DNA from: Escherichia coli
GTDB taxonomy: Bacteria > Pseudomonadota > Gammaproteobacteria > Enterobacterales > Enterobacteriaceae
Assembly (NCBI RefSeq): GCF_045037415.1
Contig: NZ_CP173438.1
Strand: one strand, 5' to 3'
Length of the DNA stretch: 64,000 nucleotides
The number at the start of each line of letters is the position of its first letter. Positions within the stretch are counted from its first letter, which is position 1. The position numbers are program-made. Positions 52,401 to 55,400 of this stretch are shown here, piece by piece.

Positions 52401-55400
52401 CTTCCTGACGGTGTTGATATTGATAACACTGCGGCTCACATCCTCTTTATAGGTTTCCCAGCCCCAGTCACTGGTGCCAAACGCTCCACAAATCTTTCCC
52501 CATAAACCACTCTGCCGACGGCGACGGGTGACGGTCTCCGTTCTTTCCTCCATAAGCGCACTCAGATTTGTTTTTACCGCGAGCCGGGTTTGTAACTGAC
52601 TGACTGCCGGAAAACTGATTTTTACGGTAAAGCCCTCATCCTCCAGGCGGGTATTGATGCGACCGGCAATGTTTTCTGTGGCGTACAGGGCCGTGCCACG
52701 AAAACCTGTTTCAATCCCGCTGACGATTTTCTCCAGCTCAGGCCGGAACTGTGCTTCAGCCTCACGGTGCAGGCTGGTCACGGTCGATTCGATTTGCGTC
52801 ATCAGTTCAAGGGCTTCCCTGCGATCACTGAATTTTATTTCGGGGCTGTCGGGATCAAAGTCCCGCATCCTGTCATGCTGATTTCCGGTTCCGAAAATAT
52901 CGAGAAAGAAAGCGAATGCGTTTCTCTCCCGGGGCTGCGCTGAATTTTCTTCCTCCAGCATTTGCTGTTCTTTGCGTTTACCGCTTCTGAAATAGTCATT
53001 CAGCTCCTCTTCCAGTGAGGTGCAGACCCCCGTCAGTAATTCCCGGGTTCTGGCATCGATCTCCTCCATGGCCATTCTGACATCAGCGGTCACCTGCTCC
53101 TGACAGTCTGCTATTTCCCGGATATCCTCAAGCAGGCTGGTGATATGCGCCTGCAGTGACTGAATACTTTGCATCAGCCCCTGATGGCGTAACGACAGGT
53201 ATTCACTGATATTTTCTGCATTCTGCATCAGTTTTGCGGCGGCAGAATCAACCGCCAGTGCCGCAGCTCTGGAGTGTGAACTCAGTATGACTTCCGTTAT
53301 CAGTTGATCGATAAGTGAGCCTTCCCACAGGTCTGTCGCCCCTTCAGTTGCCAGTTCGCTGTCTTTACAGACGTAATCTTTTTTCATGCGACCGAAGGCT
53401 TCCCTGACAAAATCATCGACCCAGGCTTCATCAACAGGAAGGGTTCCGTTTTTCCGTAACTCATGAAGCGCACGGTTAGCCAGGTATGCCTGGCGTGAGG
53501 ATCCGGGATAAACGCGGGAGGCGGGCAGCACATCGCTGTTCAGCATTGCCGGTACCTTCTGACAGACTGCATCAGCCCCATCGCCATTACGGTCTTTTTC
53601 ATCAAATTTATTGACCAGCACAAACAGGCGGCCGACAGACACATCAGCAATGGCATTAAGCTCTTTACGAACCTCCTCATCGGCTTTCGAGTTCATCTGG
53701 GTGTAGTCCATCACCGCCAGCACCGCAGAGGCTTTCTGCAGTTGATCCCGCATCATCACTTCCATCTGCGGTTGTCCGGCTTCATTAGGGCCGGGGGTAT
53801 CCAGCAGTGTGAGTGTTCCCTGGCATTCATCCATCCCCACCAGATGGCTGAATTCCACGTCGATCACCGGCAGTTTCTGCACTTCTGCGTATTCATCAAA
53901 AGGAAATTCACTCCCCATTGCCGCAGCAAGACGAACCAGATCGTTTAACGATGCCAGTCCGGTAAAGATTTCCTCCTCCCCGTGGTATTCATTTTTGAGC
54001 CAGCCATCATCCGTCAGAATATCCAGCAGTTCGCGGGTATCCCCGGTTTGCTGCAGGGTCTGTGCGACCTGCTGTCCTGCCGGGGTGGCGAGTTTTTCCT
54101 GCAGTGTGATTAATAAATTGCGGACAGGCTGAATATGTTCCAGATGGAGAACCGGCTCAGTTTTTCCGGGAACGTGGCGGATGAGCGTCGGTACAGAGGT
54201 CATGGGGCGGTTACGGTTAGGCAGAATTTCCTGCCCCACAATGGCGTTGATGGTGGTTGATTTACCTGCTTTCATCGTGCCGACAACAGCCAGCACCATC
54301 TCCCTGCGGGCGGTTTTGATTTGTTCGCCCTCCAGCTCCTCAATTCTTTTCAGTGCTTTCTGTTTATCAAAAAGCAGTCTTTTTTCGTTCTTACTGTCAG
54401 ATAACACATCTGGCTCCTCAACCATTTGCCGGAGCAGATTAATGTTCAGTTGCAAAAGTCGGTCGGCTTCATCACAAAGCAGGGCGATGTTCTTTTCGTG
54501 CATTATTTAACCTTCCTGAGACGCATTTTCATGACAACCACGGAGGAGGTCATTTACCACAAACGATCGTTTATAACGATCGATATGATAGTAACGATCG
54601 ATGTATTCTATTAACTTGAAAAACACAACGCAAGGGGACACCCCGGGTATGGCTGCGTTTGCATAGTGTTTTCATGGAGTTAAAAATCTGTAACAACAGC
54701 CTGGTACATCACCACCGGGTTCAGAAGAAAATCCAGTTCCATACCGCGCGGGCAACAGAAACCACCGAGTCACGGACGGCGCGCAGAACCGTGCGTGCAA
54801 CAGAGGCAATGCAGACACTCTCCGCCGTGTCAAATATCCGGTCCACCGCACCGGTAAACTGTTCACGGGTCTGAGTGCGGACAGACTCCGTGCGCAGTTC
54901 GTCCTGCAGGCGTGTCATCAGAGGGATGGCGGCATGTCCGGGAAGCACTGTCATGAGTGCACTGACCGGGGTGACCTCCCCCTGAAACAGTGCATTACAG
55001 AGTGAGGATTTACCGGCCCCGCTTTTACCCATAATGCCAGGCACGGGTTCGTGACGGGTGAGTTTGCGCAGATGTTCCAGGATGTGACGGGAAATCGGGT
55101 AAGGCAGGGAGGAGAGCGGTTTTTCAATTGCCTCAATGGCATCAGACGGATTCATACATGTATTCCCAGTGAAAAAAGACAAAACCCCGTGCACCGGAAA
55201 GGTGGCGGGGGATTCACGGAGATAATATCTTTCTGAAATTATTTTGAATGCAGGTATATGTGGCTGATTTGTATCAGCTAATGAGTACAGGTCTGAATCT
55301 AATCTGACAGTCCGCTTTGTGCCAAAGGCGGACGCTCAAGTAGATACTGTCCTGACAGTATGCGGTAATCAGAGTTGTTATATATTACTTGCGTCCAAAC

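Follow-up and report, generated by a model that had tools for sequence, protein, structure and literature searches.

The closest described relatives of the gene analysed here are three genes of E. coli K-12. Two of them, ykfA (b0253, in CP4-6) and yfjP (b2632, in CP4-57), encode 287-aa “putative GTP-binding proteins” (“YfjP family GTPase”) that are full length and contain the complete set of GTPase motifs, G1 to G5, with G4 in the form SQSDK. The third, yeeP (b1999), is a pseudogene of the CP4-44 cryptic prophage that has decayed by 5' truncation: its 426 bp correspond to the end of the central region and the tail, without the P-loop, and the island backbone around it consists of yoeA (TonB-receptor fragments), the truncated yeeP itself, isrC and flu, which encodes Ag43. 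Genes of this family are found equally beside Ag43 genes or beside genes for DUF932-domain proteins (yafZ, yfjQ), and we therefore regard them as backbone genes of their islands and not as dedicated partners of a dynamin. Our search of the literature on yeeP, ykfA and yfjP found neither a functional study of the family nor a description of the 438-bp deletion reported below. Spontaneous deletions between short direct repeats (slipped mispairing) have been classically described in E. coli lacI.

The 64-kb stretch of E. coli DNA that we analysed (the window) contains a member of this family in the yeeP position. In the annotated genome of strain Esc23, which is 100% identical, the gene sits in a CP4-44-equivalent island, divergent from a cluster composed of a TonB-dependent receptor gene (yoeA-like) and FecCD-type ABC transporter genes, and upstream of dynamin-family, RdcB/YjcZ-family and patatin-like genes. 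These are followed by IS remnants, then by genes encoding DUF932-domain, antirestriction and JAB-domain (RadC-like) proteins, by yeeT, cbeA, cbtA and yeeW, and by tmaR, yeeA, sbmC and dacD. In both Esc23 and K-12, the gene occupies a backbone position of a CP4-type island upstream of variable cargo and yeeT/cbeA/cbtA, and K-12 yeeP likewise lies beside yoeA remnants and directly upstream of a block of three GATC sites and the cargo. Because this backbone is shared, the window gene is a positional orthologue of K-12 yeeP that has taken another route of decay; the 3' 247 bp that the two genes have in common are 92% identical. The first-pass annotation had called the gene yeeP-like, a designation borne out by its place in a CP4-44-type island and by 43-47% identity to K-12 YkfA and YfjP. 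A tblastn search found no further copy of a yeeP-like gene in the window. The features of the locus are as follows, with coordinates counted from the first nucleotide of the window.

54721..55155, minus strand: yeeP-like GTPase gene, deletion allele; the coding sequence has 144 codons and a stop codon, with the ATG at 55155, RefSeq WP_001069649.1.
55156..55194, minus strand: upstream in-frame extension to a GTG (13 codons), non-coding by homology.
55006..55029, minus strand: G1/P-loop (Walker A) GKSGAGKS, the sole GTPase motif left in the remnant.
54960..54967, minus strand: deletion junction, the single GGTCAGTG copy left, placed by alignment to full-length alleles.
54721..54959, minus strand: retained 3' part, comprising the end of G-domain helix alpha5 and the conserved helical C-terminal tail, approximately residues 212-290 of the full-length protein (structural map from a low-confidence model).
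54565..54599, minus strand: intergenic triple-GATC block, whose homologue in K-12 lies upstream of agn43/flu.
52119..54503, minus strand: intact dynamin-family gene, 794 aa, CrfC/RdcA-like, by ORF and homology.
51217..52122, minus strand: intact RdcB/YjcZ-family gene, 301 aa, by ORF and homology.
50150..51220, minus strand: intact patatin-like phospholipase gene, 356 aa, by homology.

The ORF that the first-pass annotation had placed at 54721-55194 on the minus strand is present and is open for 157 aa when counted from the GTG, but the coding sequence starts at the ATG at 55155 and not at 55194. This ATG is the start in the RefSeq annotation of the Esc23 genome and in all homologues, which is why we consider 55156-55194 to be non-coding, and the protein that begins there has the N-terminus MNPSD... 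(MNPSDAIEAIEK...). As had been stated from the sequence alone, the ORF retains a P-loop N-terminus, with GKSGAGKS at 55006-55029, and a conserved C-terminal tail, which ends ...VVSVARAVWNWIFF, and it is still translatable. Depending on the genome, the RefSeq protein, WP_001069649.1, is labelled “GTPase family protein” or “hypothetical protein”, and it carries no pseudogene flag in the RefSeq records that we opened.

We used as references the full-length alleles of strains 222, 13P477T and GPEC657, each of which lies directly upstream of the same dynamin/RdcB/patatin genes. Alignment of these 290-aa orthologues with the remnant, at both the DNA and the protein level, contains one clean gap of 438 bp, equivalent to 146 codons, such that residues ~66-211 of the full-length protein are missing, and the query matches most E. 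coli genomes in two pieces that span 912 bp, versus 474 bp in the window. Alignment with full-length YfjP and YkfA, which had been proposed as a check, gave homology over both retained parts (43-47% identity, with the P-loop context and the ...VVSVARAVW... tail invariant) and placed the absent residues in the centre; over the same retained parts, identity to the full-length orthologue is 94%. Family members are ~287-290 aa long and have G1 to G5, of which only G1 is left in the window protein. The first-pass annotation had put the central loss at about 130 aa; the loss itself is confirmed, and its size is corrected to 146 aa.

The deleted segment holds switch I/G2 (..AGTRE..), G3 (DLPGVGE), G4 (MQADK) and the G5 region (VAVSA). 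Residues ~37-220 of the full-length protein align with the G domains of Der, Era and MnmE, and the full-length orthologue scores 55.6 bits against Pfam MMR_HSR1, versus 18.7 bits for the remnant (gathering cutoff 21.9), which fell below the gathering score of every family in the profile search. An AlphaFold2 model of the full-length protein, built from a 4-sequence alignment and of low confidence (mean pLDDT 56), has six strands and five helices in alternation, with two helices on their N-terminal side and two long ones on their C-terminal side, and a single-sequence model of the remnant (mean pLDDT 44) has no confident fold; both are too weak for a fold search and were used as a rough secondary-structure map only. 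On this low-confidence map, beta2 to beta6, alpha2 to alpha4 and part of alpha5 are gone, and the deletion would have brought the end of the G domain and the helical C-terminal tail into direct continuity with the N-terminal helices, beta1, the P-loop and alpha1. The predicted product, from which G2, G3, G4 (xQxDK) and G5 have been deleted, cannot be a GTPase, in agreement with the initial opinion that it is probably non-functional as one.

Short direct repeats, which had been suggested as something to look for at the junction, are indeed present. In the full-length alleles, the 8-bp sequence GGTCAGTG occurs at both ends of the lost segment, at nt 189 and 627 (438 bp apart), within the contexts ...GTCACCCC-GGTCAGTG-ATGTTCAC... 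and ...GATACGCT-GGTCAGTG-CGCTCATG..., and the window allele has no scar at the junction besides the one copy that was kept. These data point to a single deletion of 438 bp with its end-points in two in-phase GGTCAGTG copies, of which one was left behind. The likely route is replication slippage or another form of microhomology-mediated illegitimate recombination; the footprint is the classical signature of slipped mispairing or microhomology-mediated deletion, and it is from this footprint that we infer the mechanism. We also considered GGTCAGTG as a special motif and dismissed the idea, local enrichment being only mild.

The full-length gene contains 12 (13P477T) or 13 (strain 222) maximal exact direct repeats of at least 8 bp, and their spacing is a multiple of three in 7/12 and 8/13 cases, respectively. 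A 181-aa paralogue encoded beside an Ag43-type autotransporter gene (P0008) has lost 327 bp in frame between 9-bp repeats, TTCCGTCTG, a pair that is a member of the gene's own list of direct repeats. Since most repeats of at least 8 bp are in phase, and since a paralogue has independently undergone an in-frame deletion, the in-frame outcome needs no selective explanation. The first-pass annotation had presented in-frame internal deletion as a distinct decay route; a single in-frame deletion is what we find, whereas the fact that it is in frame is expected from the phase of the repeats and is not remarkable in itself.

We searched complete genomes with a 46-bp junction probe (19 + 8 + 19 nt), against which no full-length allele can align more than 27 contiguous bases, too few to seed megablast. 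The probe matched 921 of the 5,426 complete E. coli genomes (17%), 794 of them exactly and 127 with one mismatch, and because the junction recurs in so many genomes, the deletion is not an assembly artefact. Carriers include strains named O25b:H4-ST131, JJ1887 and SE15, and the full query matches Nissle and “FDA strain Seattle 1946” at 99.6%. A second copy of the junction is present in ~94 genomes, and full-length paralogues co-exist with the short allele (median, 2 places per genome). The 144-aa forms in the protein database, which are 83-99% identical to the query, without exception carry the junction TP-VS-ALM, and every named match is E. coli. Two sequences were set aside. The single plasmid match, NZ_CP098222.1, looks like an error-rich assembly, with indels of the homopolymer type and only 12 features annotated over 37 kb. 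A 146-aa protein with the same junction and another N-terminus (P0012) comes from a 2.4-kb metagenome scaffold that has no contiguous match among complete genomes, the best cover being 88% in 2-3 pieces; paralogues may have been joined there into a chimeric assembly, and the protein was excluded as evidence.

Taken together, these comparisons make it very probable that the ORF is a deletion-derived remnant of a yeeP-family small GTPase gene and is functionally a pseudogene. Among full-length alleles, dN/dS is ~0.20 both in the retained flanks and in the central part, and between ykfA and yfjP it is 0.17, indicating that purifying selection acts on the intact family. The short lineage has five non-synonymous and two synonymous changes of its own (binomial p ~0.07 against dN/dS = 0.2, with seven changes only): in the 5' part, of the window type, S20P, whose codon also carries a silent change, L21I and S34R; and in addition A70V, P78H (found in the common KE51-type sub-lineage) and a further silent change of the window allele. 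The remnant therefore leans towards relaxed constraint, a trend that is non-significant with seven changes. Rare derivatives of the short allele have undergone more in-frame deletions, leaving 141, 127 and 116 aa, and one derivative has been extended to 201 aa by stop loss. Judged from these sequence data, the gene most probably persists as a translatable yet functionless remnant that evolves neutrally.

Alternatively, the 144-aa product could be a retained functional small protein, with, for example, its N- and C-terminal helical parts binding a partner or the membrane; it might serve as an adaptor, or interfere in a dominant-negative way with the adjacent dynamin system or with paralogous YeeP-family GTPases, and B2/ExPEC lineages might favour the allele. 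Several observations lean this way: the ORF is open in the carriers sampled, with both conserved termini preserved in frame, which points against a pseudogene; other full-length paralogues are present in the same genomes; and the allele has reached 17% and is common in successful ExPEC lineages, something for which selection, rather than hitch-hiking, could account. We nevertheless consider a retained protein improbable. Chance alone can leave a 435-bp ORF open at such divergence, and the phase of the repeats accounts for the in-frame state without recourse to function. Changes in the short lineage are mainly non-synonymous, against a dN/dS of ~0.2 in the full-length genes, and the further-deleted derivatives include one, the 116-aa form, that has lost even the P-loop. 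The failure of AlphaFold2 to find a confident fold for the remnant is weak evidence in the same direction. A more specific version, in which a 16-kDa protein uncoupled from GTP hydrolysis acts as a constitutive adaptor or dominant-negative for paralogous YeeP-family GTPases or for the putatively phase-variable dynamin/RdcB-like/patatin module, strikes us as quite improbable; if the 16-kDa product were retained, it would contribute to the high frequency of the allele in B2/ExPEC lineages.

The history of the remnant can be traced in its haplotypes. There are two, the window type and the less common type of strain 64.1, which differ at 17/435 positions. Set against the flanks of the full-length alleles that GPEC657 and 13P477T carry at this locus, the short allele of strain 64.1 has only 3/435 differences (99.3% identity). 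We searched with a synthetic “predicted progenitor” that combines full-length-specific sequence with the junction-proximal haplotype of the window, and found progenitor-type full-length alleles in 6 genomes, namely four GPEC chicken strains (99.4%) and 13P477T and S171-1 (98.1%); all other full-length alleles are at most 94% identical to it. Variants within ~130 bp beside the junction are common to both short haplotypes and occur, among full-length alleles, in these 6 genomes only. The positions at which the short haplotypes differ are clustered far from the junction, towards the 5' and 3' extremities, and in its 3' block the window allele is identical to the strain-222 type. No full-length allele with the window-type 5' variants (S20P, L21I, S34R) was found in the 5,426 genomes, and the best full-length matches differ at exactly four positions of a 259-bp probe, the number of window-specific 5' changes.

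The simplest reading is that a single deletion arose in a full-length allele of the type still present in GPEC657 and 13P477T and that the short allele then spread by descent and recombination, giving rise to the two haplotypes that between them make up the carriers counted above; we infer a single origin from the pattern of shared variants. Because the less common short haplotype matches rare full-length alleles at 99.3% identity, the short form is best seen as the product of one deletion that spread and not as a natural short family. The latter was the outcome that the first-pass annotation had named as contradicting its interpretation, and what we found instead is one junction, named matches that are all E. 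coli, and flanks nested within full-length diversity.

It is also conceivable that the deletion is recurrent, having occurred at the same 8-bp microhomology in different full-length alleles, with the two haplotypes representing separate events. Microhomology makes the same end-points reusable, another repeat pair has already been used in the paralogue, and a difference of 17/435 positions between the haplotypes is compatible with separate events. Recurrence would, however, have to accommodate the junction-side variants that both haplotypes have in common and that only 6 full-length genomes possess, and the location of the differences at the far ends, with a 3' block of the strain-222 type, is the pattern expected of recombination after a single deletion; we regard recurrence as highly unlikely. 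A further reading, in which the long form gained an insertion and the short form is either ancestral or a naturally short paralogue family, has the abundance of the short form and nothing else in its favour and is already refuted by the alignments. What such an insertion would have to supply, the 146 aa, amounts to the conserved G2-G5 core of a canonical Era/Der-like G domain (43-51% identical in YkfA/YfjP); the junction is always the same one in matches that, where named, are all E. coli; and on either side of it the short form is 99.3% identical to a full-length allele.

Between the remnant and the dynamin gene lies a 217-bp spacer that holds TTAATAGAATACATCGATCGTTACTATCATATCGATCGTTATAAACGATCG, which aligns with the K-12 yeeP-flu region, AATAATAGAATAAAACGATCAATATCTATTTTATCGATCGTTTATATCGATCG, including all three GATC sites. 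The arrangement GATC-N14/15-GATC-N9-GATC occurs once in the window (versus 0/100 shuffles), and every fetched locus in which a yeeP-like gene is followed by a dynamin operon or an Ag43-type gene has exactly one instance of it. We take the aligned K-12 block to be the agn43 Dam/OxyR switch. In the agn43 regulatory region, three GATC sites overlap a single binding site for OxyR, which is a repressor in this region and can no longer bind once Dam has methylated the sites; together these elements form a Dam/OxyR phase switch (PMC2909390, PMC3764049). By homology of the GATC block, the dynamin operon may be phase-variable; our literature search found no paper joining GATC, OxyR and dynamin. The presence of the block suggests that the downstream dynamin operon has its own regulatory region, and for this reason the upstream deletion is unlikely to be polar. 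Homologous dynamin/RdcB-like/phospholipase operons, located on two islands of the B2 strain MP1, are treated as a putative defence module in the passages searched of a 2026 transcriptome paper (PMC12922286); neither those passages nor the ones searched in the other papers found mention the yeeP-like deletion.

The locus is a well-resolved natural case of gene decay by deletion between short direct repeats, of little importance alone. Its practical value lies in annotation, as in RefSeq the remnant passes in ~900 complete genomes for an ordinary “hypothetical protein” or “GTPase family protein” when it should be treated as a deletion derivative, and in the 46-bp junction, which is a simple lineage marker present in 17% of complete E. 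coli genomes. The backbone GTPase has been lost, yet the adjacent dynamin/RdcB-like/patatin operon remains intact, and the more interesting lead is this dynamin operon behind a block homologous to the agn43 Dam/OxyR switch region.

Membership of the locus in Eleos or another defence system was considered and rejected, PADLOC having returned only weak, partial matches to LeoBC, LeoA and phospholipase profiles. A likeness to the LeoA/LeoBC (“Eleos”) dynamin-like defence proteins does exist at the level of the G domain: the full-length YeeP-like G domain matches LeoBC weakly (E = 7e-8, over ~80/601 profile positions), the matches to the LeoA and LeoBC profiles are all partial and of G-domain level (E 7e-8 to 2e-3), and a dynamin-family gene adjoins the YeeP-like gene. 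The full-length G domain also matches the TRAFAC GTPases Era, Der (EngA) and MnmE (PDB Der, E = 6e-7; NCBIfam Era, E = 7e-13; MMR_HSR1, 55.6 bits), but these matches fall far under the equivalog cutoffs and the full-length protein is therefore no Era or Der orthologue. Within its own family, the window protein differs from the full-length YkfA and YfjP by the 146 central residues that it lacks, and the window allele differs from K-12 yeeP in having kept both ends and lost the middle, with a dynamin operon next to it in place of flu. In mechanism, the deletion would be alike in kind to the slipped-mispairing deletions of lacI, here as a natural, population-level case carried by 17% of complete genomes.

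The region upstream of the yeeP-like gene is also remodelled, since its neighbours differ among the strains compared (window 55195-55583 against 1343-6039 of comparison locus L003 and 4805-6039 of L001, from strain 222). The gene for a TonB-dependent receptor directly adjoins the yeeP-like gene in the window, in Esc23 and in KE51, while in strain 64.1 the two are separated by ~4.5 kb of extra genes (two of them hypothetical, one of the ETEC_3214 family and one an integrase fragment), and strains with full-length alleles carry IS100 and a 1,152-bp hypothetical gene upstream. The 438-bp deletion junction is present twice in ~94 complete E. 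coli genomes (1,016 places in 922 records), including strain KE51 (NZ_CP141080.1), and the extra copy might lie in another island with a dynamin operon, of PAI-aspV type.

The 8-mer repeated at the ends of the deletion, the cargo module and the sequence preceding it are located as follows.

Repeat copies, cargo module and upstream block
Window 45017, 51798, 52383 and 54960: copies of the 8-mer GGTCAGTG
L014 (strain 13P477T, full-length allele) 4608-4615, 4683-4690 (inverted) and 5046-5053: copies of the same 8-mer
Window 50150-54503, minus strand: three-gene module, intact
Window 54565-54599, minus strand: triple-GATC block, inside the intergenic region 54504-54720, with homology to the K-12 yeeP-flu region

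Locally, GGTCAGTG is over-represented, with 6 copies observed and 0.32 expected in the 10-kb L014 locus and 4 observed versus 1.25 expected in the window; one inverted copy in L014 lies inside the deleted segment, 75 bp past the left repeat. This excess probably reflects chance or codon usage, and a role for the 8-mer in promoting slippage is speculative. An independent in-frame loss, of 327 bp (109 codons), has occurred in a separate yeeP-family gene, a paralogue adjoining an Ag43-type gene (L011:6001-6546, GCA_012368955.2 contig); its ends are 9-bp direct repeats, TTCCGTCTG, and its product is 181 aa. The full-length allele nearest the progenitor (L013:4421-5292, strain GPEC657) is annotated as frameshifted, with 1 nt missing from a GGGG run of P-loop codons, either because this gene has genuinely decayed by a second route or, possibly, through a homopolymer error in the long reads.

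The module encodes a dynamin family protein (CrfC/RdcA-like, 794 aa), an RdcB/YjcZ family protein (301 aa) and a patatin-like phospholipase (356 aa). Upstream of this operon, the triple-GATC block corresponds to the K-12 sequence preceding agn43; all three GATC sites are common to both, at nearly equal spacing. A single instance of the pattern is present in the window, against none in 100 shuffles, and every fetched locus carrying dynamin or Ag43-type cargo likewise has one. Because the block matches that of agn43 and the pattern recurs with such cargo, the operon may be phase-variable via a Dam/OxyR mechanism. No paper bringing GATC, OxyR and dynamin together was found in the literature searched. 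According to PMC12922286, homologous operons were strongly up-regulated in a lysogen clone, without tracking the lysis-lysogeny decision; as an idea only, the ON/OFF state of the putative switch could account for this. In K-12, the cargo behind yeeP is flu, encoding Ag43, whereas in the window the three-gene dynamin module stands in its place.
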